In this document: positions 5,802-34,871 of the stretch, piece after piece
Numbering within the stretch: position 1 is the first letter of the stretch
How the letters are laid out: the number at the start of each line of letters is the position of its first letter
DNA from: a virus
Lineage: Duplodnaviria; Caudoviricetes
Reading direction: 5' to 3' (one strand)
DNA: 64,000 bases
IMG/VR virus record: IMGVR_UViG_3300021295_000001
The notes under the pieces: generated by a model
Database searches by the model: none
What the model was told of the DNA's origin: nothing
What the model saw: the letters and a program-made list of their open reading frames with translations, nothing else
Position numbers and translations under genes: made by a program

Positions 5802-5815
5802 AGGAGAAATAATAT

Positions 5816-6142
5816 ATGAGAATATTTAATCAAAATAAGACGCAAATAATTACTAATCCCGATTTAACAAAAGGGTATTTGGTTTTAGACACTATTCCTT
5901 TTGAAGATGCGGGTCTAGACGGAGAAGAAACTATCCTCGTCTACATCCCTTATACCGAAGCGGAACTTCACAAAATACACGCTGAAAACCGCATCGCAGA
6001 ACTCAAGAAACTCTTAGCCGATACTGATTACCAAGCCATTAAATTCGCAGAAGGCGAATTATCGAGCGACGAATACGAACCCACTAAACAAAATCGCCGC
6101 GCTTGGCGAGCCGAAATCAACCAACTCGAATCTCAGTTATAA
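5816..6142 (+). CDS. Tail fibre assembly/chaperone-like protein
   Basis: Directly follows the fibre gene; ELKKLLADTDYQAIK...R.AWRAEIN motif typical of fibre-associated small proteins. Confidence 0.65.
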   Translation: MRIFNQNKTQIITNPDLTKGYLVLDTIPFEDAGLDGEETILVYIPYTEAELHKIHAENRIAELKKLLADTDYQAIKFAEGELSSDEYEPTKQNRRAWRAEINQLESQL

Positions 6143-6222
6143 GTTAGTAGGAGAATAAATATGGCTAATAATAAAATAACCGACGCCAATCGAAGTTTGC
6201 GAACCCGTTGCGAAGTTCCCCG

Positions 6223-9979: not shown

Positions 9980-10328
9980 TCGCTTCCCTCCTTAGCCTTT
10001 CCAATTCGCGTTCGTGATACGCTATCTGCGCCTTGACGGCGTCTTCCTTGGTCTTGGCCTTCGCCTTCTCCAATTTCAAGTACGCCTCGTAGGCCTCGTC
10101 CTTCGTCTTGAACATCATGTCGTTGTTTTGGATGGCGCTGTAGGATTCGCGCCTTGAGTCGTAATAACGGTGCGCCCAATACGTGATTAACGGCCTGCTC
10201 GCACCGCAGAACGTCACGTCCACCCTGTCGAGTTGCATCGTCATCATCATGGTGTCCGAGTGGCCATTCCCGTCGTCCAGGTAATAGAAGACGCTCCCCA
10301 CCTCGAATTTTGTGTCTACGGTCGTCAT
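9972..10328 (-). CDS. Hypothetical protein, family D (TKFEVG.VFY)
   Basis: N-terminal motif shared with 15338-15967 and 17467-17808. Confidence 0.7.
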   Translation of the reverse strand: MTTVDTKFEVGSVFYYLDDGNGHSDTMMMTMQLDRVDVTFCGASRPLITYWAHRYYDSRRESYSAIQNNDMMFKTKDEAYEAYLKLEKAKAKTKEDAVKAQIAYHERELERLRREANG

Positions 10329-10708
10329 TTTTCTTCCTCCAGTTCCTCTTTGGTAAATGCCCACATGACGCCATAAGCGTTCATGTCAAGTCGTTTCTTA
10401 CAAGGTGGTTCAGTTTTTAGATAGATGATACATCTATCACTTTTCTCTTCGTCTCGAGTGGCTTTTTGGTAGTGCACTTCATCTATCGTCCTTTGGTAAT
10501 AATCGCTTATAACATATACCGTGTCTCTTTTTTTCACATCGGAGAAGATTTTGGCAAATCTTTTTTTGAAAAAGCGGTTTACCCTGTAGCGATTTAGCGG
10601 TTCTTTGACAAGCATTATTATTACCGCGATTAAGGCTATGACTATGATGCCCAAGATAATCCAGGCCCCAATGACTTTCGTCTTCGCCCATTCTTCAATC
10701 CAGTTCAT
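10325..10708 (-). CDS. Membrane-anchored hypothetical protein
   Basis: N-terminal TM helix; C-terminal YGVMWAFTKEEL motif. Confidence 0.7.
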   Translation of the reverse strand: MNWIEEWAKTKVIGAWIILGIIVIALIAVIIMLVKEPLNRYRVNRFFKKRFAKIFSDVKKRDTVYVISDYYQRTIDEVHYQKATRDEEKSDRCIIYLKTEPPCKKRLDMNAYGVMWAFTKEELEEEK

Positions 10709-10709
10709 C

Positions 10710-11351
10710 TTATTCTACCTCCACATAAGACCAACTCTGGGGAGCGCGTTTGAGCCTCCTCTCCTCCTTGTTCCTGTAGTAATCCACCATCGACTCGTAA
10801 TCGTGGTGATAGGTTTTCGGAAGGGAGAAGAACTCGCTTAGTTCCTTCGGCTCATCGAAAACCTCTAGGTCGGAGATGTGCCAAGCGTAGCCAATCATTC
10901 CAAGCGGGTTATTGGAGCCGAGGCATTTTGTATCTAAATAGCGGACGACCTCGAAAGGGCTTATGCACGCTTCCTTGCATATCCGATTGTGCTTTCTTAT
11001 CTCCTCGTTGTATTTCGGTGCGTTGCCTTCGTGTTTTATCTCGCTTATAAAATCAAATTTTTCCACTTCCTTAAGCGTGAACTTCGCGACGACCTTGCCA
11101 TTCAACGGACCGTCCAGTTCGGATGTCCCGACGCATTTCATCTTCTTGTCATCGTCCTTGAATTGATGGACGCAGAAACGGGTGGCGTCGTTGGTCAAAT
11201 GCGTGAGGGAATAACCGTGCGTGCAATAGATATACACATCTATCGGCAACTCGCACTTTGGCTCGGTCTTGCGGATTTCGATGGTTTTCTCCTCATTGAG
11301 GATTTTCTCCACCCATTCGGGGCGGATGCTGATTAGGATTGCTTTCTTCAT
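10710..11351 (-). CDS. ASCH-domain (PUA-like) protein
   Basis: ILISIRPEWVEKIL..EKTIEIRK, VYIYCT, GKVV..F, APQSW.YV signature. Confidence 0.85.
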   Translation of the reverse strand: MKKAILISIRPEWVEKILNEEKTIEIRKTEPKCELPIDVYIYCTHGYSLTHLTNDATRFCVHQFKDDDKKMKCVGTSELDGPLNGKVVAKFTLKEVEKFDFISEIKHEGNAPKYNEEIRKHNRICKEACISPFEVVRYLDTKCLGSNNPLGMIGYAWHISDLEVFDEPKELSEFFSLPKTYHHDYESMVDYYRNKEERRLKRAPQSWSYVEVE

Positions 11352-11641
11352 TATTCCCAATCCTCCATTTGTTTTGCCGCTTCCTTCCAATGTTTTAATG
11401 TATCCTCAAAATTGGCGATTATCCTCAAAGCCGCTTCTTTTCTAGTGAAAAACCACCAAACCCCATAATCTTCATACAAAAACTCAATTGAGAGATTTGG
11501 ATAAAAATCATCATAATCGGCAACGATGAAGGATTTTTCTCCTAAGAAGCCGACAAATGCCAAATGTATTGAGTCGTCCCCATACTTGAGATATACGGTC
11601 TGACCTATTTCTGGTTTTATTTCTTTCTTATTCATCGCCAT
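11351..11641 (-). CDS. Hypothetical protein, family A
   Basis: KPEIGQTVY...YGVWWFFTRKEA; paralog of 12446-12718. Confidence 0.7.
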   Translation of the reverse strand: MAMNKKEIKPEIGQTVYLKYGDDSIHLAFVGFLGEKSFIVADYDDFYPNLSIEFLYEDYGVWWFFTRKEAALRIIANFEDTLKHWKEAAKQMEDWE

Positions 11642-11827
11642 TCCTCCTTCAGTCTAGCATCTCGAATCTATCGGCTTTTGCGCCTTCCAATTCCTCAATG
11701 CCTCTTTGGTCGATGATAATCGTCATATGCGGATGCATATATTTTTGGGCGTATTCCTCCGCTATTTTCTTTAGTTTTTCCCAGCATTGTTGTTTTTCCT
11801 TTTGGTATTCTCCGCGTTCTTTGGTGG

Positions 11828-12202
11828 TCACCATTTTTTCACCCCCAACTTTTCTAACTCTTCTTTTGTCAGTGCCCATGTTTTACCGTGTTCTTCAAGA
11901 GGGAAGTACTTATCCCAGTGACTCTCTATACCACAGTCAAAATCGACATTGTGTTTTACCAAGCATTTACCTCTGACATCCAACGTGGGGATGCAATAAC
12001 CCCCGTAACCCTCACAAAGGACATAGTAGATTCCATTCTCCAATGCTTTGAAAACAATGTCTGCGTCAATTCCCAACTTCTCCTCTGTGTCTTCCAAAGC
12101 GCCTAGTTTTTGGGCTAAAGAATAACGGTCGAAGTCGTCTAGAGGAGGTAAAACATATAACATGTTTCCTTGCGCCGTTTTTGTTTTGCTTGTGTATCTC
12201 AT
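11828..12202 (-). CDS. Hypothetical protein, family C
   Basis: KLG.LED.EE.LG.D and CIPT.D...KC.V.HNV.FDC shared with 15982-16362. Confidence 0.75.
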   Translation of the reverse strand: MRYTSKTKTAQGNMLYVLPPLDDFDRYSLAQKLGALEDTEEKLGIDADIVFKALENGIYYVLCEGYGGYCIPTLDVRGKCLVKHNVDFDCGIESHWDKYFPLEEHGKTWALTKEELEKLGVKKW

Positions 12203-12445
12203 AGAATTTCAATCCCTCCGTCCTCGCAAATTATAATCTGCTTGTTTGGAAACATCTTTTTGAATTCTTTTCCGCTTTCCCAACCAAATTTCATATAAAT
12301 TCTATACAAAACGTCGGCGATTGTTTCCTTTTCGCCATGGAAAACGAATGGTGAGGAAACGATGCCGTCCACCATAACATTGAAACCGTAACCAGTATCG
12401 TAAATGGAAATGACGACAATGTCTTTCATCTCATCGTTTGCCATG

Positions 12446-12718
12446 TCATTCTCCTTCCTCTTCTTCCTTCGTGAAAGCGCGGATATGGTCGTTCCACTCG
12501 TAACCGTTCCGTTTCAGCCATTCAAGGGCTTCTTCCTCCGTTAGAAACCACGAACTTCCATAACCAGCAAAACAAATGGGTTTATTGTGTATATAATCGA
12601 CCTGCCCGTAGCAAAGGAAGCGTTCCTTGCCGATATATTCGACCGTCATCTTCTTCAAATATTTATCACCCAAGAAACTGCCGATATGCCATATTTCCTG
12701 TCCCAATTTCGGTTTCAT
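12446..12718 (-). CDS. Hypothetical protein, family A
   Basis: KPKLGQEIW...YGSSWFLTEEEA. Confidence 0.7.
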   Translation of the reverse strand: MKPKLGQEIWHIGSFLGDKYLKKMTVEYIGKERFLCYGQVDYIHNKPICFAGYGSSWFLTEEEALEWLKRNGYEWNDHIRAFTKEEEEGE

Positions 12719-13077
12719 AGCAATTCGAATTCCCCTTTCTCGTTCATCTTCGCGACAAAGGAAATGCAATCCCCCCAACTATGAACCGCGCCATATACCG
12801 AGTACTCATAAGGACTGTTAAGATGATACAACTCGTAGAAGTCCGAGGGGTCCGAACGAATTTCTATCGTCCAAGGCAGTTCTTTTCCGTTCTCCTTCAT
12901 GAAGGAGATGACGTAATCGCAAAGCCCAAGAATCGAGTCGGATTCTTTTTCTACGTCGTCAAAACTAATTGGCATTTCAGGTCTCAAGCGTAAATTGGAA
13001 TCGACGATATATTCGTAATCGTTTTCACGGATTACCTCGTAAATGTACCCAAGTTTCGTCATGATGTATTTCTTCAT
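12715..13077 (-). CDS. Hypothetical protein, family B
   Basis: KYIMT...YSVYGAV...VAKMNEKGEFELL. Confidence 0.7.
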   Translation of the reverse strand: MKKYIMTKLGYIYEVIRENDYEYIVDSNLRLRPEMPISFDDVEKESDSILGLCDYVISFMKENGKELPWTIEIRSDPSDFYELYHLNSPYEYSVYGAVHSWGDCISFVAKMNEKGEFELL

Positions 13078-13436
13078 CGGCCGTCCTCCAAAACCCCCAT
13101 ATCGAAACCCGATTCGATGAACTTGACGCACAGGGCGCGGTTCACTCCGTTGCCCAAACGCGCATAGATTCTTTCCATTTCGTCTTTGGTGAACGTGAAT
13201 CCGAAATAAGCGCAAATCCCATCGAAATGGTATTTCTTGCTCTGCCATGAGCCGTTTATGGCCGCTCCGCTACAGAATTCAAGAACCTTGCAATCCAGTT
13301 CCAATTCCGTCGCTACGTTATCAAGCATGAAGAATGTGTTGGTCCTCGGGTATATTATCATCTCGTTGGAACGGTTCACGAATGCCTTCGGGAAGCACGC
13401 GAGCACCCTCGTGAGTTCTTTGCTTTCGTTGTTCAT
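13074..13436 (-). CDS. Conserved phage hypothetical protein
   Basis: CFP.AF.N...E...PRTN.FF.L...CKVLE...IY.RLGNGVN..L...FIESG pattern recalled from Bacillota phages. Confidence 0.7.
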   Translation of the reverse strand: MNNESKELTRVLACFPKAFVNRSNEMIIYPRTNTFFMLDNVATELELDCKVLEFCSGAAINGSWQSKKYHFDGICAYFGFTFTKDEMERIYARLGNGVNRALCVKFIESGFDMGVLEDGR

Positions 13437-13724
13437 ACGTTCTTCCTCCTAGCCTTTTCGATGGCTTTCGTTCTTTTTTATCGTGTAGCCATTCGACACG
13501 AACGTTATCTTCTCGATGCAACGCGCCGTGAGCAACCACACCCTACCGCCGTCCTGCAACAGCAGGTACGGGCTTCTCCCGTAGTGGTAATCGGGGTCGT
13601 TTTTCAGGAGCCAACCCCTCAGGTTCACGCGGTAGCCGTCACCGTCCGACACGACGACGTCCACGTAGTTTCCGACGGCGTATTCGTTGATTGTCCTTTT
13701 ATTATACCTCATGGACACCCTCCG

Positions 13725-13964
13725 TCAGCAATTAACTTTCTCTTTTTTCTTCACCAGTTTCTTTCCGCAATGCGGGCAATACTTGAAATGAACCTCGGAG
13801 TCCATTTCGTTCTCTTTGTTGAAAATGAAGGGACAGGAAAACGACTTCCCCGTTTTCTCGCAGGAAATCTCCGCTTCAAAAACCTCATCCACACCACATT
13901 CCAATATGTGATGGATGTCCTCCCTTTTGTGTCCGTCTGATAATACGAATTTGACTTTAACCAT
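13725..13964 (-). CDS. Small zinc-ribbon protein
   Basis: CEKTG...FKYCPHCGKKL. Confidence 0.65.
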   Translation of the reverse strand: MVKVKFVLSDGHKREDIHHILECGVDEVFEAEISCEKTGKSFSCPFIFNKENEMDSEVHFKYCPHCGKKLVKKKEKVNC

Positions 13965-15337
13965 GTTTTCTTTCCTTTCTCATTCCTCGTCCTTCTCGAC
14001 GTCAGCGCCTTCCACGCCTTCTAGTTCGTTTTCATATTCCTTCGCTTTGGAAGGGTCGTAAAAGTGGATATAGCGACCATCCAGTTTGAGTATGACGAAC
14101 CCTCGTTCTATGAGGTATTTTTCAACCTCGTATGGACTCCCATACTCGGAATATGCGATTCCGTCTATCCCATATTCCGCGAAGAACACGTTTATGTCAA
14201 TCATCTTGCTTCCTCCAGGTTTATCTTTCCGTCTTCGAGGTCCAGCAACGCTTGCTCGTATCCCCTTACCCAAGCGTTCTCAATCGTTGCACGGCGCATT
14301 TTGTCGTTTGCTGAGTGGGATGGGAATCGCCAACCGATGTCATGCAAAAAGCAATCAACCGCTTCCTCGACGCTTCCGCTGTGTTCAAGCCGTACTCTTA
14401 TTCCCTCGATTGCGCTTCTATAGCCCGCTTCGTAATCTCTCTTTATTCGCGCTTCTGTTTTCATTGTCCGCAAGCCCTTCCTTGTTTCTCTTCTTCTTTA
14501 TCTTCTAGGTAAAGATATCCAAAAGTGAAAATTAAGCCGAATACTGGCAAAGTTAATTGCAGATATGTTATCAATCCGTAATCAGGTTTTCCTGCATAAA
14601 GCGTTATCGAAAATATGAATAGCAAAATAATCTCGCCAAGCACGCATCCCGCCAAGAACAAACCGAGGAACAAACCGAGTGTTTTTAGGATAACTTTCAT
14701 TCCTCCACCTCCTCGTTCATGATGTTTGTATCCTCGTACCCGAACGTGATGTCGTTGTTCGTTAGAAAATCGTGCACGTTTTCAAAGGCGTTCAGCCTTC
14801 CAGATAGTTCGGAGTCTTTGCACACGAGGCGTAGGAATTCGGCCATGTCGCCCGTTTGCTTGCTTTCGTAGTCGGCCCTCTCGATGCCGAGGTCGTTCCG
14901 TTTTCTCTCTTTTTCGATGCGACGAATCTGACTCCTCGTCGAAAACTCCAGGAAATCCAGTTTCGTGAGCGCGATTTTCAATGTCATAATCACGTCGTCC
15001 CACTTCCCTTTGTCTTTTTCTGGTAGGCTGTCTTGGAAATACATTACGAAGGCGACCGCTTGTTCCAATTTCATTGTTCGTCCACCTCAACGTTGCCCGC
15101 TTCCGCCTTCTTGAAGACTCTGTCCAGTTCCGCGTCCAATTCGGCGACGTACCAATGCATGGCGTCGAACGTCGCCTTGACGTCCGTAATCTCGTAGAAA
15201 TGCCTGAGGGACTTCGTCAGCCTCCTGCCTTTGAGCCCTAGTTGCCTCGTGGTGTCGAGGAAGTCGATTGCCTTCAGTGCCTTGGACGCCTTCTCGCGCA
15301 TCCGCATCAGCGCCTTGTATTCTTCCTTAGCGTCCAT

Positions 15338-17808: not shown

Positions 17809-18267
17809 GTCAGTCCTCCCTTATGCAATCGTACATGAAGTCGTTCCCGCCTTTGGTGGCAACCCATTCCTCGTACGTGTATACGCGAACCTCGTCCGAG
17901 AACGGTTGCACCACGAGCCAGTTGTAACTGTACGGGTTCGCGTGGAACATGGCCGTCATGCCGTTCCTGACGTCGAGGGAGAATTTGCCTCGCATGTATA
18001 TGAGGTCGCACCTGACCGTCCCGAGTTTCTTGATTTCCCCGCTACCAGTCGCGACGTAGTAGACGTCGAAACAACGCCATCCGTAGTTCTTCCTGCTCGA
18101 TGGCTTGGTCAGGACGCACGTCGTGACGAATTCGCCCGCTTCAGGGCCAGGCTTTTCCGTCTCGTAATGGAAATGGTTGTGCGCGTAATCGCCGTCATGC
18201 GCCTCGAGCAACTCCCTTTCGTCATCGTCAATCATTCTGCTTATCATCGTCTTTCCCCTTTCTCCGT

Positions 18268-18645
18268 TCATAGGAGTTTCCACTCCCCCTTATCGTATTC
18301 GGCGACTGGGGTCAGGCCACCGCCTTCCCATATGACGCCGTAAATAGAATAACCCATGCCGTCGTATGTGTCAAGCACCGATTTGGCGTCCCACGAGTCT
18401 GACGGCAGGTATTTGTGGCGCTCCTCGCCGTCCAGCGTGCCGACCACGGTGAACCCGTCGAACAGGGGAGGAAGGTCGTCGGACTTGGCCTTCACGCGGT
18501 CCGACGGAACCCACATCTTGTTGAAGTCGCAAAGGAACCCAGACCCGTTGCGCACGAGGTATTCGGCTTCCCCCTTCCAGTCGTCCCGCGCGTCCAGCGC
18601 CTCGCGTATGCCTTCGTCCGTCCTGACGTATTTCGGATTCGTCAT
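18268..18645 (-). CDS. Hypothetical protein, family B
   Basis: KYVRT...YSIYGVIW...VAEYDKGEWKLL. Confidence 0.7.
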   Translation of the reverse strand: MTNPKYVRTDEGIREALDARDDWKGEAEYLVRNGSGFLCDFNKMWVPSDRVKAKSDDLPPLFDGFTVVGTLDGEERHKYLPSDSWDAKSVLDTYDGMGYSIYGVIWEGGGLTPVAEYDKGEWKLL

Positions 18646-19018
18646 AACTCGTTCCTCCCGTAATACGAATCGCCGTCCTCTGGCTCCGACTCGATTGGCT
18701 CGCACGGGTCGTCGTCCCTAAGTTCGAAAAGGGCCCGCTCCATGGCGCGACGCTCCTTCCTCTGCTCCATGCTCGGCCTGACGTCCGCGCCCGACGTGGC
18801 GTGCCTATGCGCCGTCTCCGCGTCCAGCAAACCGCGAACGAAGCATTCCTCGAACACGCCGTCCACCATCTCCTCGGTCACCCAATGGGGCAGGTAACTC
18901 GCGCGTTCCAAGAACCTCGCTATGTTCATGAGGTACTCATCGGAAACCTCCGATTTCCAGTATTCCCTTTCCTTCGTCTTCCAAAAAACCATGGCAATTA
19001 TCACCCTTCTCCCCAAAC

Positions 19019-19047
19019 ATTGTAACGCGGGATGGCGACCAAGTCAA
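19019..19047 (-). promoter_or_regulatory. sigma70-type promoter driving the leftward early array
   Basis: Minus strand TTGACT-17-TACAAT. Confidence 0.75.
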
Positions 19048-19097
19048 GACAAGCGGTAGCCCCCGACGTTATTATACGGTCGGCCCCATACCGCTTT

Positions 19098-19106
19098 TGC
19101 TAAATT
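19098..19106 (+). promoter_or_regulatory. Putative phage late promoter TGCTAAATT (first of 13 exact copies)
   Basis: Also at 20020, 21514, 25936, 31741, 34916, 39828, 44139, 45180, 47048, 49071, 56781, 58031; each just upstream of a + strand gene or unit. Confidence 0.75.
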
Positions 19107-19133
19107 CCTAGAACACAAGGAGATATTTTTGAC

Positions 19134-19307
19134 ATGATTACATCCGTTGACCAAAGCACATACGAATTCAGGGGACTCAGCACCGACACGAAGCCGACCG
19201 AGAACGTCGGGAACGGCTCCCTGTTCTTCGAGATGGACACCTCGAAGTGGTACATGTTCGACGCATCCGCCAACACGTGGATGGAAATCACGTGGAGGGG
19301 AATCTAA
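19134..19307 (+). CDS. Small 57-aa phage protein (missed by ORF track)
   Basis: MITSVDQSTYEFRGLSTDTKPTENVGNGSLFFEMDTSKWYMFDASANTWMEITWRGI; AAGGAG RBS; follows late motif. Confidence 0.75.
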   Translation: MITSVDQSTYEFRGLSTDTKPTENVGNGSLFFEMDTSKWYMFDASANTWMEITWRGI

Positions 19308-19347
19308 GGCGCGCGCACCGTTCTCGCGATAGAGTGAGGCACGATAG

Positions 19348-20025
19348 ATGAAACCATCGGAATTGTTCTACAAATGCGCCTTCGAGGTCAAATACGAGAC
19401 CGTGGGCAACGACGTGAACTACGCGTTCATCGAGGATGGTAGCACGTTGTACCTGTTCCTGCAAGGAAGTTCGAGTGACGTCGATTGGCGACGGAATTTC
19501 ACGTTCCCAGCCCGCCCGTACAAGGACATGGGCATCCCGTATCTCGTCCACCGCGGGTTCTTGGAGGCGTGGAAGGAACTCGAGGACGTAGTCATCGCCA
19601 AGGTGACGGAACGCGTCCCGTATGGCGAGTGGAAGTACAAATATGACCACGTCGTCGTCATCGGCTATTCCCACGGTTCCAGTTTGGCATTCTTTGCAAC
19701 AGAGTGCATATGGTATCACAGAGAAGATTTGAGGGACGGAGGGTTTGAGACATACGCCTTTGAATCACCTAGAGTGTTTGCTGGGTTTTGGATTCCAAAA
19801 AAATTAAGGGAGCGTTGGAACAACATGACTGTGTTCGTCAACGGAAGTGACATAGTAACCCATTGTCCGCCTCGGATATTTGGATTTTGTCACGCAGGAC
19901 ACATAGTGCATATAAAAGGAGATGTTTCTTTGGTAGAAGGAAGGCTACCGAAATGCATCAAGTACCATTATCCACAAGTAGTTGAGGATGGCCTTAAAAA
20001 GTACGAAAAAGACAAAGACTGCTAA
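19348..20025 (+). CDS. Lipase class 3 (alpha/beta hydrolase)
   Basis: LFLQGS, VHRGF, VIGYSHG (GxSxG), FESPRV, DIVT..P, terminal HYP. Confidence 0.85.
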   Translation: MKPSELFYKCAFEVKYETVGNDVNYAFIEDGSTLYLFLQGSSSDVDWRRNFTFPARPYKDMGIPYLVHRGFLEAWKELEDVVIAKVTERVPYGEWKYKYDHVVVIGYSHGSSLAFFATECIWYHREDLRDGGFETYAFESPRVFAGFWIPKKLRERWNNMTVFVNGSDIVTHCPPRIFGFCHAGHIVHIKGDVSLVEGRLPKCIKYHYPQVVEDGLKKYEKDKDC

Positions 20026-20120
20026 ATTGTATAGATTGCTCCTCTGATGGTGACGCGTCTGTTGGAGAAATCCGACACACCTTCAGGGGAGGAATCTTCA
20101 GGGACGAATTAAAGCAAAAA

Positions 20121-21071
20121 TTGTTGGGTCTAGGGTGTTTCGTTGACAACGAATACCTAGACCTTTATTGTTCTTTGATAAACGATAACAGAGCCACAAA
20201 AAGGGAAAAGTTCAAAACGCAAAGCCACCACATAATACCGAAATGCTGTTTTTCTTGCCTAAAGTTGCCGATAGACGATTCATCAGAAAACAAAGTCAAT
20301 CTCCTGTATTCAAAACATATCCTTGCTCACTATTATTTGTGTTTGTGTTCAGATAGCACCAATAAACAATTAAAATACAAGTTGGAGAATTCATTTCTTC
20401 ATCTTGTATCAGGCGATGCCAACAACAAAAAACGCATTGAAAATTATGAGGTGGATGAATTTGAACAATTTCAAGAAATATATGAGGAGTGGAAAAGTCT
20501 AAATAGTTCACTTAAATTGGGGAAATCTTCTTGGAACAAAGGTCTTACAAAATCGACAGATGCTCGTGTTGCAAAATACTCTAAACCTCGTAACTTTTCT
20601 AAAGAGCATAATAAAAATCTAAGTAAAGCAATAAAAGAATACTTCAAAACTCATGTAGCGCCAGCAAAAGGGAGAAAGTTATCGGACGAAGCAAAACGCA
20701 AACTATCTGAAGCGCACAAAGGTAAATATTATATGCCAAAGGACCCAGAGGCGCATTCAAAGAAAATGTCAGAAAATTCAAAGAGATACTGGGAAACTCA
20801 TCCCGAAAGAATTAAAGCCCTCATAGAATACAACAAATCTCGTGTTATATCAGAAGAAACACGACGCAAAATTGCCTTGGGCCAAAAGAGACAAGAAGTT
20901 GTAATGATAGACGATGACGGGAATGTGATACATAATTTTATATCCATCAAAGATGCTGCTAGATATTTCAACATAACGAATTGTGCCGTTTCTTGGAGAA
21001 TAAAGAAAAGAAAGGAAATTGAGCCAGGAAGATACTTAGCATTCAAACAGGATACAGATGTCAGAAAATAA
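20121..21071 (+). mobile_element. Free-standing HNH homing endonuclease with NUMOD3/NUMOD1-like DNA-binding repeats
   Basis: HHIIPKC...N.VNL...H..AH; WNKG, LSDEAKRKLSEAHKG, FISIKDAARY; AT-rich; exact start uncertain. Confidence 0.8.
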
Positions 21072-21083
21072 AAACAAAAGAAG

Positions 21084-21377
21084 TTTGAAGGCGGTCTCGA
21101 GGGCTACGGATTCGAGGCACCGAGGGTCTTCTTCGGATGGCACGTCAAAAAGGAACTGAGGGAGCGCTGGGCTTCGTTCAGGGTGTTCCGCAACAAGAAG
21201 GACATCGTTACGCACATGCCCCCGATTCTATTCGGGTTCAGGCACGTGGGAGAGGTCGTTAGGATTGGCCAGGGCCTCCCAGACGACGACTACCATTGGC
21301 CGAAGTGCGTGGGCGCCCATTACCCAGACAAGGTATACGAATCGCTCAAGGCATACGAGGCCGAGGGAAACGAATGA
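21084..21377 (+). pseudogene. Displaced original 3' half of the lipase gene
   Basis: GGLEGYGFEAPRVFFGWHVKKELRERW...DIVTHMPP.LFGF.H.G...PKC...HYP aligns to the lipase C-terminal half; no start codon/RBS at its 5' edge. Confidence 0.85.
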
Positions 21378-21382
21378 TTCGA

Positions 21383-21404
21383 CGGGGCCGAAAGACCCCG
21401 TTTT
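21383..21404 (+). terminator. Rho-independent terminator
   Basis: CGGGG-ccgaaaga-CCCCG then TTTT. Confidence 0.65.
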
Positions 21405-21549
21405 CGTTTCGCTGTATAATATGATTGCGGCTTAAAGCGCACGGTTTCTATTCGTTTTCAAAATTCGAAAAACGCATCGTGCGTGCGCACATACACGCGA
21501 TGTATTCGTCGTTTGCTAAATTCAGAAGAAACGGTTGGAAGGTTTTTCG

Positions 21550-24500
21550 ATGTCCGAAAGCGCAAAGTACTATGATTCTAATGGCAGGCGCCTGACGGAT
21601 GGGCAGGCCAAGTTTTTCTGGGATTCTGCCGTGAGGGACGGCCAAGGAAGGCTGTTGGTGTGCTATCATGGTTCCAACGAATCGTTTTCTGAGTTTGACC
21701 CGTCAAAAGCGTCAGGCGGTTTCTTCGGAAAGGGATTCTATTTCTCGAAAGAAGAGGAATATGCATCTGATTACGGAACATCGGTAGGCGCGTATTACCT
21801 GAACATAGAGAACCCATTCTATTATGATGAGTCGACCATGGAAGACGTCAGGAAAATCCTTGATTTGGAAATCAAAAAGGGAAAAATCGACGGTTACGAC
21901 GAAGAGGAGATGCCACGATTAGAACAAGAATGGTATGACAAAGGGTTGGACCTCATAGACGACGTCTTGGCGGAATTGGCTGGTGGTTACACGGGTGACA
22001 CGTTTTCGGAAGACATCATGCAACTTGGATATGATGGGATACTCGTCGACTACGGAAGGGAGATAATCGTGTTCAGCCCGAACCAGATTAAGCGCGTGGA
22101 CAACACAAACCCGACCGATTCCGATAGATTGGATGAGAAAACAACGCAAAACGTAATCTTTTTCGGCAATCCGACCAAGCGCAATGACATGCGCGCCACC
22201 GAATCATTTGACGAGGCTTACGAGCCGATGAAGACGGGCAAGGCATACAAGGTCTTCCGCGTGAAGAACGGGAAACTATATCCTCCCATGGTGGCCAACG
22301 CTGGCGGAAGGGACACGCCGATTGGGGTGTGGCTCGACGCAGAGGAAGGCGAGTTCGCTGGCCTTTCCAAGACTGGCAGACCCCAAGTCAAGTCGACTGG
22401 CTCTGGCACGCTCTCATACAGGCCTGGGTGGCACCTCGGCGATTTGCCACGCGCCCCTCAGTTCGACAGGACCAACAAGGAGACTGGCGAGAAGGAATTC
22501 CCGAGCGATTTCGTTTGGGCCGAGTGCGACTACGCCATGGACGTCGACTATCAGCCAGAGGCGGACGCCCGTGGGTACGAGAGGACCAAGATGGGCGACG
22601 ACGGCAAGGTCGTGACCTACAAGAGCGACAAATACCAACATTCCCTCGCGGGACTTCCGAAACTCCCAGCCAAGGGTTATTACAGATACAGGACCAACCC
22701 GAACCCCGAAACCGTGCCATGGGTCATAACTGGCTCGATAAGGGTGAACAGGTTGCTTTCCGACGACGAGGTGAACGCCATCCTGAAGGACAACGGAGTG
22801 GCCCCGATACACAGGCAGGGCGGTGACAAGACGCTCGCCGAACTCGGCCTTTCCGAATCCCTGTCCGAGGCATCTGGCTCGGGTCTTGACGAACAGGCGT
22901 CGCGACGCACGCTGACATCGAATGATTTCCTCGGTTGGGTCGAGGCGCTGTCCGACAAAGACGACATATCATATAACTCCCCCGATTCCATCGAATACTC
23001 GGACGTGTTGTTGCTGAGCCCCGAAGGGGACATGATTGACTGCGGGGAATACGACACCCACGAGTCTTTCGTGGACGCCGTGATGGAGACGAATGAGGCC
23101 AAGGAGGCCAAGGCGCGCGTCGTTTGGGACGGGAGAATAACCGATTACCTTTTGGAGAAACTCGGCTACATCACGCTTAACAGTGGCCAAGGATACGGCG
23201 ACGACAGGTTGAAGATAGTCATATGCAGAAAGCCGAGCGCTCAGCAAATCGACATCCTCAAGGAGTGGCTTGGAAACCATTTCGCGGACAACGGTCCCAC
23301 GTTGCATGTTTATACGCCAAACGACCATAAGGAATTCGACCCAACGTATTTCGACAAGGAAGACGTGACGAAAGGCATAATCAAGGCGTTTTCTTCTGGT
23401 AGAGGGGTGTTCACCGAGGCCACTGGCTCGCACCTGAAGGGCGAGTACGACTACGGCGACGTGCATTCGTACCTCGAATCCGAATTCGGGTTTTCGGACG
23501 ACATCCCCGAGGTCATGCCACAACTCATAGACAAAGACGGGCGCTTCTGCTCCATGAGCCCAAAATCCAAGCCGAACGCGCCCATGTTCCATGGGGAGAT
23601 ACTCCAAGCCATGGAGGACGACGGAATCGTGGCCACTGGCGATTCCCTTTTGGACAAGGTGAACCTAACCAACACCGACCTGTTCCAACGGCTCGGGTTC
23701 ATACGTTGCAACCGCGGGAGCGAGGGATACCACTACATGGCGTTGCCAGACGCCCCCACCGCGAACCAGATGAGGGCCCTCAAGAGGTACGTGCTCGATT
23801 CCTATTCCGACAGGCGCGCCCTGATTGAGATAAGCGGTCGTGGCGAATACGTGAACTTCATGGTCAACGACGACACCTATCCGATATGCGGGCACGTGGA
23901 CGACCTCATGAGGATGTTGGTCAGATACGCCAACGGCAGGCCCCTGAGGACGAAAACGGAGGCCAGGTTGTCCGAGGAATGGCTCGACGACGAGCACGGA
24001 ATCTGGATGACCGAGAGCCAATACGAGGTCGCCAACATGATGAGGAACTCCAAACACTCCCTCAGGATACTCTGGGACAGGAACCTCAAACTGTTCTTCG
24101 TGTGCGACGCGGACCTCTACATACACAGGGACATGATTGAGCAGGCCGTGGAGGACGGGCTGTACAACGGCGTCATAAGCCGTTGGGGTATAGACTCGTA
24201 CGTCGACGACTACGGCAGGAACGTGATATACTACATCTTCGCGCCGAAGGGCCTCGAGAAGGAGACCTACGGGGCGGACGTGAACGAGGACGGCTACGAG
24301 GGTAAATACATATACCCATTCGGGACCGTGACCACGCGTAGCGACGACAGGTACAAGTCCTCACCGCTCGCCAAGGCGCTCGGGAAGTACGAGGCCCATT
24401 ACGTGCAGGACGGGTGGGTCGACGATTACACGCCGAAGGTCGTACAGGTAGAGTCGATGCTCACCGAGGTGTATCCGAACGAGGGCGAATCGAAGAAGGA

Positions 24501-25506
24501 CTTCGTGTCCCGCTTCATGTCCGTTACCAAGGACGAATACCCAGACGTAAAACAGCGATACGCCGTGGCTCTTTCCTATTGGGACAGGGCCAAACGCAAA
24601 AACGAGTCGTTGCTCACCGAGAAGAAGCGCGGTGAACTCATAAGCCAGTCCAAGAAGGGCGCGGACTATTCGAAGAACAACCAATCCAAAGGCAGGAACA
24701 GGTGGGAGCGCAGGATGCATTCCCGCGTGGCGAACAGCGTCAGGGACTACGACAGGATAGACATGAACGCGCTTTGGAAGGCCGACATACTGGAGTTCGG
24801 CGTGAAGGTGCACGGCGAGACCGACGACTACGTGGTCACGATAACGTTCGAGAAGATACTCGACAACCTGAGGCAGGAGGTCCGCTCCAACGGCAACAAG
24901 ATGGAGTTCAAATGCGTGCTCAGGGCGCTAATGAGGTCGTTCAACGACGACGACGTCTTCATCAGTTGCTCCTGTCCCGACTGGAAATACAGGTTTTCCT
25001 ACCAAAGCACGATTGGGCGCTACAACAGCGGTCTGCCAGAACTCAGGCCGAGCGACATCACCAACCCCAACAACGACAAGGGCGCTGGGTGCAAGCACTC
25101 GTTGCTCGTCCTGTCCAACACGGACTGGATGGTCAAGATAGCGTCCGTCATAAACAACTACGCGAGGTACTGCCAGAAGAACATGCAGAAGAACTACGCG
25201 GACTACATATTCCCGAAGATTTACGGGATGCCCTACAAGAAGGCCGTGCAACTGTCCCTGTTCGACGACATGGACCCCGATAAGAGCGGTCTGTTGCCGA
25301 GCGACCAGAAGGCCCTGTCCGACGTCATAGAACTCGGCATGAGGGGCAAGGACGAGAAGGGGCGCTTCGAGAAGGGCAACGACTACAGGTTCGCGAAGAC
25401 CAAGCCCGAGGTTGGGACCGACCAAGAGGACGAGAACCCGCTCGAACTCAGATTCGACAACAACAGGCGCAAGACGCTCAGGGGACCAGAGGAGGAAGAA
25501 GGATGA
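21550..25506 (+). CDS. Large multidomain (polyvalent-type) protein: ART-PolyVal-like domain, several unknown modules, C-terminal SWIM-like zinc finger
   Basis: VCYHGS...GKGFYFS...YLNIENP...GYDGI...FSPNQIK; CSCPD...CKH; late motif at 21514. Confidence 0.7.
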   Translation: MSESAKYYDSNGRRLTDGQAKFFWDSAVRDGQGRLLVCYHGSNESFSEFDPSKASGGFFGKGFYFSKEEEYASDYGTSVGAYYLNIENPFYYDESTMEDVRKILDLEIKKGKIDGYDEEEMPRLEQEWYDKGLDLIDDVLAELAGGYTGDTFSEDIMQLGYDGILVDYGREIIVFSPNQIKRVDNTNPTDSDRLDEKTTQNVIFFGNPTKRNDMRATESFDEAYEPMKTGKAYKVFRVKNGKLYPPMVANAGGRDTPIGVWLDAEEGEFAGLSKTGRPQVKSTGSGTLSYRPGWHLGDLPRAPQFDRTNKETGEKEFPSDFVWAECDYAMDVDYQPEADARGYERTKMGDDGKVVTYKSDKYQHSLAGLPKLPAKGYYRYRTNPNPETVPWVITGSIRVNRLLSDDEVNAILKDNGVAPIHRQGGDKTLAELGLSESLSEASGSGLDEQASRRTLTSNDFLGWVEALSDKDDISYNSPDSIEYSDVLLLSPEGDMIDCGEYDTHESFVDAVMETNEAKEAKARVVWDGRITDYLLEKLGYITLNSGQGYGDDRLKIVICRKPSAQQIDILKEWLGNHFADNGPTLHVYTPNDHKEFDPTYFDKEDVTKGIIKAFSSGRGVFTEATGSHLKGEYDYGDVHSYLESEFGFSDDIPEVMPQLIDKDGRFCSMSPKSKPNAPMFHGEILQAMEDDGIVATGDSLLDKVNLTNTDLFQRLGFIRCNRGSEGYHYMALPDAPTANQMRALKRYVLDSYSDRRALIEISGRGEYVNFMVNDDTYPICGHVDDLMRMLVRYANGRPLRTKTEARLSEEWLDDEHGIWMTESQYEVANMMRNSKHSLRILWDRNLKLFFVCDADLYIHRDMIEQAVEDGLYNGVISRWGIDSYVDDYGRNVIYYIFAPKGLEKETYGADVNEDGYEGKYIYPFGTVTTRSDDRYKSSPLAKALGKYEAHYVQDGWVDDYTPKVVQVESMLTEVYPNEGESKKDFVSRFMSVTKDEYPDVKQRYAVALSYWDRAKRKNESLLTEKKRGELISQSKKGADYSKNNQSKGRNRWERRMHSRVANSVRDYDRIDMNALWKADILEFGVKVHGETDDYVVTITFEKILDNLRQEVRSNGNKMEFKCVLRALMRSFNDDDVFISCSCPDWKYRFSYQSTIGRYNSGLPELRPSDITNPNNDKGAGCKHSLLVLSNTDWMVKIASVINNYARYCQKNMQKNYADYIFPKIYGMPYKKAVQLSLFDDMDPDKSGLLPSDQKALSDVIELGMRGKDEKGRFEKGNDYRFAKTKPEVGTDQEDENPLELRFDNNRRKTLRGPEEEEG

Positions 25507-26503: not shown

Positions 26504-29026
26504 ATGGAAGGATACGTATACGAGTTGAAGGGCGAACAGGGCAAGTCCAGGTTCGACGAACTCCAAGAACAGATAGACTCCCTCGACACGAGGGTCGACG
26601 CGTTGGAGGACGTCGTCGTAACTTTCGTCACGCTCGACACCGCGCAGACCATAACTGGCGACAAGGAGATAACTGGGAACGTACACATAGACGGCGCCCA
26701 AGGAAAAGCCATAACCCTCGGGCAATCCGCCGATAACCCCCGCGTGACCATAGACCAGTGGAGCGGTGTCGTCGGCTTCACCGACACGGAAGGCGGATTC
26801 AACGAATTCAATCCCTGCGACTCCGACTTCGGGGCGATACCATCGTTCGACAGGTTGGGGGTTTACGACCTGAACGCCAACGGTTTGTACTCTGGCGACT
26901 TAGAGGTCGCCGACAGCGCGACGATAGAGAACCTCCGCGTCAAAACAGTCAAGGCTGGCAACACCACGGTCAAGGGACAGAACGTATACAACTTCGAGGA
27001 ACCCTGCACGTTCAACTTCGGCATAACAAGCAGTGGTGAGACTGAGTATTATGGCGTCTTTAATACATATGACCCAGATTATGATGGCCCTCGGTTTAAT
27101 TTCCTTGCAATTGGCGGGTTAACAGTTGAAAGCAGGTTAACAGTTGAAAGCAATTTATATATTCCATCTACGATTCGCGCATATACGCCTAATGTAGGCA
27201 CATATACAATAACATTCCCCACGAAGAATGGCACGGTCGCTTTAACATCGGATTTGTATGATTATCTGCCTTTGACAGGTGGCACAATAGTATCTAGAAT
27301 TGCTGAGAATACTGATGAGAATGTCATTTCAAATCGTGAAATAACAATCAGAAGCAACGACCGCAATCACTATTCCACATTGGACAAAAATGGTGTGACT
27401 GTGTCTACACTTGGTTCATATGGTTCGACAAAAGTACAATTGGATGGCGTATTGACAACTTATGGTAGATTTGGAGAATCTGGTCATAAATACGCATCTA
27501 ATGGCATACACAAAATACTCAACAACGTTGAATTTACTTATACATTCCCATCGGAAAGCGGAATGCTCGCCTTAGGCGAACTGAAGACGACGTGGTCGGA
27601 ATTGAAAGCGTTGCGTGATGCAAGCAAGTTGGTGCCTGGAAGACAATACAGGATTACCGACTATGTCTGCACTACCGCTCAGGCAAACACCTCTTCCGCT
27701 GGGCATCAATTCGACATCATCGTTGTCGCTGACAGCGTAAACAAATTGAATGAGGTCGCACGCGCATGCCTTCACGAAGGCGATACGTATTTCGCCAACA
27801 GCAAACTGGAGGCATGGCAACTTTGGTATTGCTTGGACAACGACGACACTCGATTTGAATGGGCCGACACAAGTTACATTGAAATCGTCGGCACGATAGT
27901 GGCGAACGATGTTAGTTGGGACAGATATGAGGCTGGCGACTTCCCATCAGGCCGACATCCGTATGCGTGGAAATCCTCGGATGGAACAAGAGTCTACACC
28001 GATTCGACGACACCTTCCGTTTCAGACGAAGCATACACGTCAAGTTCCCCGAGTCCCAGTTACGCGATTACGGAAATCGTCATGGGAAACAAATACACAG
28101 GCAAAGGTGTAATTTACCATATGGTTGACGAGTTCGACAATGACGTTCCTTATGACTTTAAGAACATATTGTTTACGAAATCGGGTAAATATACAAATGC
28201 ATACACTTTTAGTTATACAGAAGACAGTGTGATTAAAGATGCTTCATTATCATTAAGTAATGGCTGTTATGGTAACAGTATGAAAGAATATCTTTTAGGC
28301 GGTAAACAACAACTTAATTTTAATGTATTTTATTCATCATCTGTTAGTGTCAGTTCTCTTATGTGTTATTGCAATACCTTTGGTTATGATTGCTACAACA
28401 ACACATTTAGAGAAGGTTGCTCTTGTAACACCTTCATCTCTAATTGCCGTAATAACATCTTCGGCGAGAGTTGCTCCTATAACACTTTTAATGGGAGTTG
28501 CTTTAACAACACCTTTGACAACGATTGCTTTAATAATATTTTCGATTCTTATTGCTCTAGCAATCTCTTTGGTCAGAATTGCACAAACAATACTTTCGGT
28601 GCTTATTGCACCAGCAATACATTCGGTGATGATTGCTTCGACAATACTTTCGGCTCTAGTTGCTCTAGTAACGTCTTTAGTAGTAATTGCCCTTACAACA
28701 CATTCGGTTGTAATTGCGACCATAATATCTTAGGTGATACTTGCTCCAACAACACCTTTGGCAATAATTGCACCTATAACACATTTGGAGAATCATCTTC
28801 GCCAATTAATTACTGTCGAGGCATTCTTTTAGACAATCTTTGTAGTTATTTAGAGATTATTTCTACCGACACTTCGGCGACATCAAGCAACTGGCTACAG
28901 AACATCCATATCCATCTCGGTGTGGCTGGTTCATCATCAGACCGCAAAACCATCACAATACCCGACCGCAATCTTCAATACACAACCGACGTCTACCCGA
29001 CAGGCTCAACGGAGATGTTCATATAA
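26504..29026 (+). CDS. Tail fibre/spike with Cys/Asn-rich 9-aa repeat beta-helix
   Basis: TLDTAQTITG.K, T.ALTSD, LVPG.QYRITDY; about 16 C..N[TIVL]F... repeats at 28370-28790. Confidence 0.75.
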   Translation: MEGYVYELKGEQGKSRFDELQEQIDSLDTRVDALEDVVVTFVTLDTAQTITGDKEITGNVHIDGAQGKAITLGQSADNPRVTIDQWSGVVGFTDTEGGFNEFNPCDSDFGAIPSFDRLGVYDLNANGLYSGDLEVADSATIENLRVKTVKAGNTTVKGQNVYNFEEPCTFNFGITSSGETEYYGVFNTYDPDYDGPRFNFLAIGGLTVESRLTVESNLYIPSTIRAYTPNVGTYTITFPTKNGTVALTSDLYDYLPLTGGTIVSRIAENTDENVISNREITIRSNDRNHYSTLDKNGVTVSTLGSYGSTKVQLDGVLTTYGRFGESGHKYASNGIHKILNNVEFTYTFPSESGMLALGELKTTWSELKALRDASKLVPGRQYRITDYVCTTAQANTSSAGHQFDIIVVADSVNKLNEVARACLHEGDTYFANSKLEAWQLWYCLDNDDTRFEWADTSYIEIVGTIVANDVSWDRYEAGDFPSGRHPYAWKSSDGTRVYTDSTTPSVSDEAYTSSSPSPSYAITEIVMGNKYTGKGVIYHMVDEFDNDVPYDFKNILFTKSGKYTNAYTFSYTEDSVIKDASLSLSNGCYGNSMKEYLLGGKQQLNFNVFYSSSVSVSSLMCYCNTFGYDCYNNTFREGCSCNTFISNCRNNIFGESCSYNTFNGSCFNNTFDNDCFNNIFDSYCSSNLFGQNCTNNTFGAYCTSNTFGDDCFDNTFGSSCSSNVFSSNCPYNTFGCNCDHNILGDTCSNNTFGNNCTYNTFGESSSPINYCRGILLDNLCSYLEIISTDTSATSSNWLQNIHIHLGVAGSSSDRKTITIPDRNLQYTTDVYPTGSTEMFI

Positions 29027-32348: not shown

Positions 32349-32792
32349 ATGGCTTACGTAAACAAGGTAAAGAAGGGTTCCGAGGAATGGGACATCCAGG
32401 ACGCCCGCATCCCCGAGGCTGAGCAGGCCGACGAGGGCAAGGTTCCTACTGTCAGTGCATCTGGTGAGTACGTTTTGGCCACCCCGTCTGGCGGAACTAA
32501 GTTATACAAGCATGCTTTAGCAAAAAGCGACTTTACAGTTGGGGCTGACATAATCACCAATTCTAGTGGTTCGTTATTCGATACGGAACAGACAATAATA
32601 TCTGTTAACAACGTAAAAGGCGTTGCTCAATATGGTGGTAATTACTATATTGCATTGCAAAACTATTTTAACAGAGCAGGAGACACCATTGTCGGATTTT
32701 CTATAACATCCCTATTGGTGTCAAATTTAGAAACAGTTGAAACACTTTCTTTTGACAGTTCGAACGCAACTGAGACAATAACTGCCCTATAA
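32349..32792 (+). CDS. Short fibre-tip-like protein
   Basis: WDIQDAR, D.GKV.TV...G, GGTKLYKH, then AT-rich variable domain. Confidence 0.6.
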   Translation: MAYVNKVKKGSEEWDIQDARIPEAEQADEGKVPTVSASGEYVLATPSGGTKLYKHALAKSDFTVGADIITNSSGSLFDTEQTIISVNNVKGVAQYGGNYYIALQNYFNRAGDTIVGFSITSLLVSNLETVETLSFDSSNATETITAL

Positions 32793-32809
32793 TAATTAAA
32801 TCAATTGGA

Positions 32810-32836
32810 AAAAGCATGCAAAACGCATGCTTTTTT
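32810..32836 (+). terminator. Rho-independent terminator
   Basis: AAAAAGCATGC-aaaac-GCATGCTTTTTT. Confidence 0.8.
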
Positions 32837-32876
32837 ATTTTGTTCATGTATAACCGTTAACCGTCGTAATTCCTCA

Positions 32877-34871
32877 TTGAAATACCAATCAATTCATGAT
32901 ACAATATCATCCGCGAGGAAAAATCATGGATAACTCTAAACCGACAAAAATCACCTATGGATACGACCGCCAACAGAGGTCGTGGTGCATCATCGTCGTC
33001 GACGCAGAGGGCAACGAAATCGAGTCATCCTACGTCGGGGACAGAATCGGTTGCGACCACGAGATAGAATATTTCAAAGGCAAATACGGAATCGACGCCA
33101 CCAAGAAATACAAAGCGTATTGACATAGCGTCCCGTTTGCCGCATAATGTAATCGCATAAGGAGAATCGCCATGGAAAAAGTCTACGAAATCAACTTCAT
33201 CATCAGAAGGAACAACCGCGACAACAAGTTCGTTACCTACCTAACTGCCAAAAACGCGAAAGACCCCCGCAAGCAATTCGACAACGTCGACCGACTTGGA
33301 ATCCGTTCGGATTGGGAAACCGCCCATCGCTTCCACGTCGAAGTCAAGAGAATCAACGAAGTCAACCCCGCCAAGATTGGCTTCACATACGCCAGATAAG
33401 GAGAAACAAACATGGAAAAGTTCGTCATCAACTACTTCAACGAAAGGGAAGTCGGGTACTTCGGCACCGTCGAGGGCGCGATTGAATACGCGGAGGGGTT
33501 CGCCAGGAACCTCATCCTCACATACGACGGGGAAATCTCCATCCGCGACGGCAACGGCGATGAGGTCGCGTCCCAGAAATGGAACGTCGCGGAAGACGGC
33601 TCCTCCACGCCAGAGGATTGGCGCTGGACCTGCGCTTACTGATAGGGGGGGAACGGAAATGGAACCGAACGAAATCATGGATAGGCTGAACGCCATCACC
33701 AAGGCGGAACTCGAACTCAACTGGAACCTGGGCGAGGTTTCGAGGGCTGTCATCAACGATTCTAACAAAAACGCCAAGCACGTCGTCTTGGCCCGCGAAC
33801 TCGAGGACGAACTCAACAAGGACATAAGGGACGGGTACGTCGCCAAGGTCGGGTTCCTCGGCACCCTGACCATCTACAGAAAGGAACGGGGACCCGTCGG
33901 AGAGCACCTGGTCGAGGTCAAGAGAATCGAATCCGAGAACTCAAAAAAACTCCCTTACGGATACGTCATGGGCAGGAAGTTGCCCAAGCGCGCCTACGAG
34001 CAGACCCTCGCTTCGATGAAATAGGAGGACGAAAACATGATGCTGACATATCTATTCCGCGGAATCCAAGAAGCCGAGGCTAGTGCGAGCACGCACATCG
34101 GGAACGGATGGTACGAGCCACACTACGAGGAAGTGGAACTCGAGGAATACTTCGATTACTACGTCGAGCCGAAAACGGAGGACTACGTAGCCTATATCAT
34201 GTGGCGCGTCATCCGCATCGACCCTAGGGCCGACAAGGAATACATCCGCGGTTGCGCGTCCGCAATCGAGCGTTGCATCGAGTCCGAACTGATTCATACC
34301 GACGCAATCGACCGCGACCCGCGCTTCGCCGACATGGTGAAGGACATCTACGAGGAAGACGCCTACGAAGCGTTCCGCGAGGAATACGGTTGCATCGACT
34401 GACGGTCGCCACACGCGAAGGCTGGGTAAGGATAAGGCAAGTCCTCCGTCATAAGGCGAATGAAATTCGTTCGTTTTCCTATTGACGAAATACGACATAC
34501 GTGTTACAATATACGCGTCAAAAGGAGAAACGGACATGGAAACCTTACTTGAAAAACAACAACGAATCATCAAGGAAATCGAGGAGCATTTCGGTAAAAG
34601 CGCCTACGAAGTCGCGAGCGATAAAAAGTTATCGAAAGACCCGTTCTTCATCGAAAAGGATAAGGAGTTCGACAGACTTCAAAACCTTATCGACACCGAG
34701 TGCTTCTAAAGGTAAGGAGAACCAACTATGAAAGACTTCGACAAAATCGGAAACGACATCGACAAGGCCATCGAACAAGCCAAGGCCGAACTCAAGGCGA
34801 GGAACCTCACCAAGAAGGTCGCAGCGAGGGCGATGGAAATCTACTGCCAACTCAGAAAGCAAGGAAAATAA
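32877..34871 (+). other. Early-gene islet: small ORFs 32926-33123, 33172-33399, 33412-33642, 33659-34024, 34037-34402, 34536-34709, 34728-34871
   Basis: sigma70 promoters TTGAAA-17-TACAAT (32877), TTGACA-17-CATAAT (33120), TTGACG-17-TACAAT (34482); AGGAG RBSs; terminator at about 34892-34915. Confidence 0.75.

Follow-up and report, generated by a model that had tools for sequence, protein, structure and literature searches.

A phage lipase gene with two 3' halves: a probable case of one-sided homing by an endonuclease cassette

How can a single gene come to have two 3' ends? The question is raised by a lipase gene in a stretch of 64,000 nucleotides (nt), here called the window, from a Caudoviricetes virus (IMG/VR record IMGVR_UViG_3300021295_000001). 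An intact lipase open reading frame (ORF) is followed there by the ORF of a homing endonuclease and then by a second copy of the lipase 3' half that lacks a start codon. The explanation favored here is that an endonuclease cassette of AT-rich phages invaded the lipase gene of a GC-rich phage of ~150 kilobases (kb) by one-sided homing, and this is held to be probable. The parts of the locus are as follows, each with the evidence that defines it. GC3 is the guanine-plus-cytosine (GC) content of third codon positions.

19348-19680, plus strand: resident 5' part of the lipase gene, codons 1-111, with the GYSHG nucleophile-serine motif (GC3, codon usage).
19681-20025, plus strand: imported 3' part of the lipase gene, codons 112-225 plus stop, with the predicted catalytic aspartate (DIVTH) and the conserved His207 (GC3, codon usage, tree).
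20020-20120, plus strand: leader of the endonuclease cassette, which encloses the lipase stop codon at 20023-20025 (core common to other cassettes).
20121-21071, plus strand: homing-endonuclease ORF, 316 codons counted from the first TTG, with homology to relatives from 20100 (profile matches).
21072-21086, plus strand: right-hand junction, an A-rich 15 nt from the endonuclease stop codon to the start of remnant homology (sequence read, changepoint).
21087-21377, plus strand: stranded resident 3' part of the lipase gene (~codons 130-225 plus TGA), start-less and in the frame of the endonuclease ORF (alignment, codon usage, tree).
21381-21410, plus strand: terminator-like hairpin plus T-run (pattern scan).

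The lipase ORF (19348-20025) has 225 codons and changes composition near its middle. GC content falls from ~0.58 to 0.44 near 19680, lies at 0.30-0.42 across the endonuclease ORF, and is again ~0.58 from ~21085. GC3 is 0.78 in lipase codons 1-111, 0.41 in codons 112-225, 0.34 in the endonuclease gene, and 0.75 in the remnant. A changepoint test based on synonymous codon usage was trained on the window's resident genes versus the endonuclease gene. By this test, the left junction falls after codon 111 (nt 19681-19684), just past the GYSHGS codons, and the right junction at nt 21075-21096. The score of 77.1 was not reached in any of 2000 codon shuffles, whose maximum was 59.8. The summed log-likelihood ratios are +36.7 for the 5' part (resident), -38.9 for the 3' part (donor-like), and +42.2 for the remnant (resident). 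The ORF is a chimera. An initial annotation had described the lipase as GC-rich up to GYSHG and AT-rich from about 19680, like the downstream endonuclease gene, and this description agrees with GC, GC3, and the changepoint.

The remnant frame spans 21072-21377 from stop to stop (101 codons, with a start-less head) and directly follows the endonuclease TAA, in frame. Its alignment with residues 130-222 of the lipase shows 48% identity (E 1e-30). The two copies of the 3' segment lie in direct orientation 1.3 kb apart. The GC-rich, start-less second copy reported in the initial annotation is therefore present, with the start of homology corrected from 21084 to 21087. A hairpin located 4 nt past the remnant stop has a 7-pair stem with 5 G-C pairs and is followed by TTCGTTTCGC. 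Its fold is not significant by itself (z -1.3). It is likely the original lipase terminator, with the end of the gene still in place.

The arrangement is not an assembly artefact, because both junctions are spanned identically by three contigs assembled independently from separate samples with separate assemblers (ENA, JGI, and Logan). The identical lipase protein is found on 15 contigs of the ~150-kb phage. A blastn search of 18000-23000 against GenBank phages gave zero matches.

The chimeric ORF belongs to the class 3 lipases. It matches Pfam Lipase_3 (PF01764) with an E value of 1.7e-12 and 47.9 bits (cut-off 22), as well as the esterase/lipase family phrog_21992 (E 2.2e-12). The profile of the lipase family matches the Rhizomucor lipase 4TGL (E 5e-17). 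In this alignment GYSHG pairs with GHSLG, and DIVTH pairs with DIVPH. The chimeric ORF retains S108, D168, and H207, three residues that are invariant throughout the family; a catalytic role is probable for His207, which lies outside the PDB alignment. The attached C-terminal half retains 27 of the 28 highly conserved positions. The remnant retains 25 of the 28, and some of its odd residues are common to relatives such as L001 (L and P numbers are our labels for loci and proteins), so it appears to be without clear decay. The predicted catalytic serine thus comes from the resident part, and the predicted aspartate and the conserved histidine come from the donor part. The chimeric lipase probably works as an enzyme.

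The two C-terminal halves differ in ancestry. More than 300 homologous lipases of ~225 amino acids occur in metagenomes. Among 128 family members, the discordance between the identity profiles of the N-half and the C-half is highest in the window lipase (Spearman -0.28). The profile correlation between the N-half and the remnant is 0.14, which is inside the family range (median 0.23). Trees built from half-genes recover the L011 lipase as the sister of the attached C-half, within a 12-member clade with a support of 0.98. This clade includes the endonuclease-linked lipases of L010, L011, L012, and L014 (six tree entries, two being protein duplicates of L010 and L011) and contains no locus known to be endonuclease-free. 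The remnant lies in a 14-member clade with a support of 1.0, together with five loci known to be endonuclease-free. An AT-rich C-terminus in endonuclease-free relatives, which the initial annotation had named as the outcome that would speak against its proposal, was thus not seen; these relatives carry the remnant type. The N-half is sister to P0020.

The endonuclease gene is repeatedly found beside lipase genes. Its relatives P0122, P0125, P0127, and P0128 are 48-54% identical, and each directly follows a Lipase_3 gene. The DNA-level check of the closest relatives covered four distinct loci besides the window, and in this close clade all five distinct loci (window, L010, L011, L012/13, and L014) follow a lipase gene. 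For P0134 (with P0015) and P0178 (with P0069), a lipase linkage is suggested only by contigs of equal length. The endonuclease gene is absent from 18 lipase loci of IMG/VR, and more distant endonuclease relatives sit at other sites. A search of IMG/VR with the endonuclease protein alone gave no relatives; a search of the same database with an alignment gave distant relatives only, none of them beside a lipase. To judge from sequence, such a sporadic distribution, tied to one site, marks a putative free-standing homing endonuclease that targets the neighboring gene.

Leftovers of the target gene also recur. The endonuclease ORF of L010 ends in a miniature leftover, in which the final 11 codons of the lipase and its stop codon are repeated in diverged form; this leftover is identical to the tail of the upstream lipase of L010 at 26 of 33 nt. 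The C-terminus of P0126, VVYDALLKYEE, is the C-terminal consensus of the lipase family. In L012 and L014, an intact lipase is followed by the cassette, and no leftover was detected. L011 comes from another GC-rich phage, with a resident GC3 of 0.71-0.77. In the lipase gene of L011, GC3 declines from 0.9 to ~0.5 around codon 45, and the adjoining endonuclease gene has a GC3 of 0.48. By its codon composition, L011 resembles a second chimera whose left crossover lies elsewhere. The cases of L010, P0126, and L011 therefore indicate that the length of lipase that travels with the endonuclease gene and the length of the leftover vary between events.

Two further observations were made at these loci. 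In L011:1028-2633 the endonuclease gene is leaderless and starts from an ATG within the 3' end of the lipase gene, with an overlap of 23 nt, which suggests that L011 uses translational coupling in place of a leader. In L012, L013, L014, L039, L044, and L045, in-frame TGA codons occur at conserved tryptophans (e.g., lipase W47) of the lipase and endonuclease genes. These AT-rich phages appear to read TGA as tryptophan.

The leader of the cassette is ~80-100 nt long. It contains a 29-nt core, CTCCTCTGATGGTGACGCGTCTGTTGGAG, at 20039-20067, which is exact wherever it is present. Exact copies are found in L010 (953-1030), L012/13 (L012:4921-5000), L014 (4923-5000), and L050-L055. The last six were found by exact match and are invariant by construction; L010, L012, and L014 were found by other means. 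The proteins encoded downstream of the leader are only 33-60% identical, and that of L051 is GIY-YIG-like, not HNH-like. The leader is found before endonuclease genes at sites whose upstream genes differ, and at six loci the unit of leader and endonuclease gene occurs without any lipase. A Shine-Dalgarno sequence, GGGGAGG, lies at 20086-20092. In a predicted hairpin (-30.4 kcal/mol, z -5.1), CUCCUCU pairs with this sequence. Changes between copies are one-sided only, so the structure is unsupported by covariation. The leader has no match in Rfam and 0 matches in IMG/VR and in bacterial genomes. A scan of all fetched loci for diverged copies with up to 6 mismatches gave none.

The endonuclease ORF matches phrog_655, annotated as homing endonuclease (E 3.9e-20), and phrog_314 (E 2.8e-6). 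Pfam NUMOD3 (23 bits, cut-off 20.4) and NUMOD1 are present, and three relatives have an I-HmuI_NUMOD-like match. Structure comparison of the modelled protein shows that residues 242-314 resemble the C-terminal domain of I-HmuI (Z 6.8) and residues 202-310 resemble the DNA-binding domain of I-TevI (Z 6.4). Near the N-terminus, H36, H37, N57, H66, and H70 are invariant in the endonuclease clade and in the wider set of leader-bearing relatives, and N60 is invariant within the endonuclease clade of 12 members. This HH..N..N..H set is probably catalytic. Residues 33-75 are modelled as strand-strand-helix in the whole protein, with a predicted local distance difference test (pLDDT) value of ~90. Cleavage activity is predicted for the protein.

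How might the cassette have entered? In AT-rich phages, the leader and the HNH-like, NUMOD-bearing endonuclease gene would normally sit just downstream of a Lipase_3 gene. Endonuclease from a co-infecting donor would have cut or nicked the resident lipase gene, with the break between codons 112 and 130. This interval includes the invariant residues E119, W122, R125, D127, and R129. The left end of the break would then have invaded the donor at the conserved GYSHG region, and copying would have continued from the 3' half of the donor lipase through the leader and the endonuclease gene. Since donor and phage would have had no homology past that gene, the newly made strand would have been joined to the right-hand broken end non-homologously. 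The outcome would be what is now present, i.e., an intact chimeric lipase ORF, an endonuclease gene, and an untranslated resident 3' half before the old terminator. The cut site likely lies within a 57-nt interval of the resident gene that the two junctions mark off, and both the cleavage interval and the repair pathway are proposed on the layout of the locus.

The initial annotation had the element insert inside the gene and repair it with a C-terminus of its own. The import of a 3' half is upheld by codon usage, identity profile, and tree. A built-in repair module is not. Such a module would have evolved as a fixed unit, with the 3' half of the lipase placed before the leader and the endonuclease gene, and would insert as a whole inside lipase genes, as has likewise been proposed for some fungal mitochondrial endonuclease genes. 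The recurring leftovers (96 codons here, 11 in L010, and the lipase tail that ends P0126) fit this idea, as does the single 0.98 clade of linked C-halves with its signature residues at 112-118 and 135-143. However, the ends of the supposed unit are not fixed. The left end of the imported tract lies at ~codon 45 in L011 versus codon 111 here, and the leftover starts at codon 130 versus ~212. L012 and L014 have an intact lipase and the cassette with no detectable leftover, and the six lipase-free loci with leader and endonuclease gene indicate that the conserved unit begins at the leader. A fixed module is thus unlikely. In the relatives, the cassette normally follows directly on an intact lipase gene. 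The replacement half is therefore most probably a co-converted donor flank, acquired by one-sided homing with non-homologous joining, and not a fixed part of the element.

A group I or group II intron with an endonuclease ORF would give the same order of parts. Nucleotides 19681-21086 would be removed, and splicing of the N-half to the remnant would give the true lipase. Phage endonuclease genes are often found in group I introns, the window has such an intron in another gene, and the remnant is intact and collinear with the N-half. No intron model matched in 18800-21900, however, at E values up to 1 and with permissive filters, and the same Rfam library detects the group I intron at 41764-42036 (Intron_gpI covariance model, 83.4 bits, E 1e-19). 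The supposed intron would open with 114 in-frame codons that form a conserved lipase C-half ending in a stop, and splicing would drop codons 112-129, which are conserved in the lipase family. In the relatives, where an intact lipase precedes the cassette, no downstream exon is present. The intron is very improbable, and the proposal in the initial annotation of a chimeric enzyme made without splicing accords with the complete ORF and its conserved positions.

Two direct copies of one segment could also come to lie close together if the lipase 3' half had been duplicated locally in tandem and had then diverged, or through a chimera of metagenome assembly. Either origin is hardly credible given copies that are 48% identical, have opposite codon styles, and fall into separate well-supported clades, and given the agreement of the three contigs and the 15 carrying the lipase protein.

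Several points weigh against one-sided homing as set out above. The N-half falls outside the clade of the remnant in the half-gene tree. The nearest relatives of the remnant, P0241 (72%) and P0242 (69%), match the N-half only at ~55%, and the lipase family is mosaic overall, as the low median correlation between N-half and C-half profiles shows. The pairing of N-half and remnant as original partners is supported by composition, collinearity, and position but not by phylogeny. The databases searched contained no close allele of this phage that lacks the endonuclease gene; the best match to the N-half (68% identical) and the best match to the remnant (72%) are in different proteins. The predicted pre-invasion allele, made of the 5' half and the remnant, was therefore not observed directly.

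The endonuclease itself adds two points of this kind. Neither profile nor structure searches placed its catalytic domain in an HNH fold. Pfam HNH is marginal (E 0.025) in one of 12 relatives, and a PDB sequence search with the endonuclease gave no match. In Foldseek and VIA-align comparisons, the whole-protein model matched only via its C-terminal DNA-binding part, with the N-terminal domain not placed; this domain folded alone has a pLDDT of 62.5 and no structural match. HNH is therefore a motif-level label. Of the HNH homing endonuclease named in the initial annotation, the homing-endonuclease family is confirmed by phrog_655, NUMOD3, and NUMOD1, and HNH holds as a motif. The second point concerns the start codon. 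AGG is found at 20100-20102, where six other aligned leader-bearing cassettes of the HNH type have ATG. The first usable start is the TTG at 20121, which is not preceded by a Shine-Dalgarno sequence. In other respects the ORF is intact. Because the usual ATG is missing, the gene may no longer be active here. It may be in early decay after fixation, or it may be weakly expressed.

The endonuclease-linked lipase alleles differ from others at positions 112, 115, 117, 118, 135, 137, 140, and 143. These could be immunity changes; the idea is only a lead, because the linked alleles form one clade.

The closest phage parallels are in T4. SegB, SegF, SegG, and MobE are free-standing endonucleases encoded beside conserved genes, and their intronless homing carries over flanking donor DNA, as proposed here. 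Unlike in those systems, where segments are cleanly replaced, part of the target is duplicated in the window and homology was resolved on one side; the endonuclease here is also a putative one with a predicted target. The predicted hairpin over the ribosome binding site resembles those of segB, mobE, and I-TevI in T4 (PMC2988022). One-sided homing with illegitimate, microhomology-mediated repair was shown experimentally in T4 (Parker et al. 1999, as recounted in PMC2988022). In that account of the td intron (Parker, Belisle and Belfort 1999), one-sided homology suffices and the other junction is non-homologous, as in the window. The td case as described there used an engineered laboratory intron, whereas a natural, lineage-fixed, free-standing gene is proposed here.

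The precedent in fungal mitochondria to which the initial annotation appealed is documented. Endonuclease genes with a duplicated host-gene C-terminus are known in Allomyces atp6, Ophiostoma rps3, and Phlebia cox2/atp6 (PMC4019555). As in the window, an alternative C-terminus is fused in frame and is followed by an endonuclease gene and the displaced original C-terminus. The fungal cases are mitochondrial, mostly of the LAGLIDADG or GIY-YIG type and often intron-associated, whereas the present case is in a phage, with an HNH-like, NUMOD-bearing endonuclease and a lipase that looks non-essential. Endonuclease genes that lie within a coding sequence with its function preserved are also known from mobE in Aeh1 nrdA and mobA with T4 gene 60/39 (PMC2988022). 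Those genes are split and their products reassemble, whereas the lipase stays in one piece because the replacement end came along. No report of a phage target-gene leftover beside an endonuclease gene was found in the literature, which was covered in part, so this is weak evidence of absence.

Two features outside the lipase locus are recorded here. An ORF of 1323 amino acids lies directly downstream at 21535-25506 and is annotated as ART-PolyVal (PF18760) on the identical contigs L005 and L006. The window is otherwise ~55% GC and has more AT-rich islands (GC 0.36-0.45) at 5200-6200, 10000-15000, 28000-29000, and 32400-33400. No relative of the lipase-linked endonuclease and no leader core was found in these islands, which may be other imported DNA.

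One-sided homing at this locus would be a natural, fixed phage example of a process otherwise shown only in engineered T4 crosses. It would mean that an endonuclease gene can enter a genome with which it shares homology on one side only, and that the target gene survives since the coding sequence of the donor comes along. Such elements would be able to cross between phages of 27-37% and 53% GC, yielding an enzyme whose catalytic residues derive from two lineages. The 57-nt bracket on the likely cut site makes the specificity of the enzyme directly testable. More tentatively, one-sided homing with a replacement gene end might be a regular route by which this cassette family moves between phages that are unrelated and have only the target gene in common, which would make the lipase family an endonuclease-driven mosaic. 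In this same speculative proposal, the 29-nt leader core, found before HNH-like and GIY-YIG-like genes at different sites, might be a new common regulatory RNA or a recombination handle. The common leader could also serve as a handle for finding such cassettes in metagenomes.

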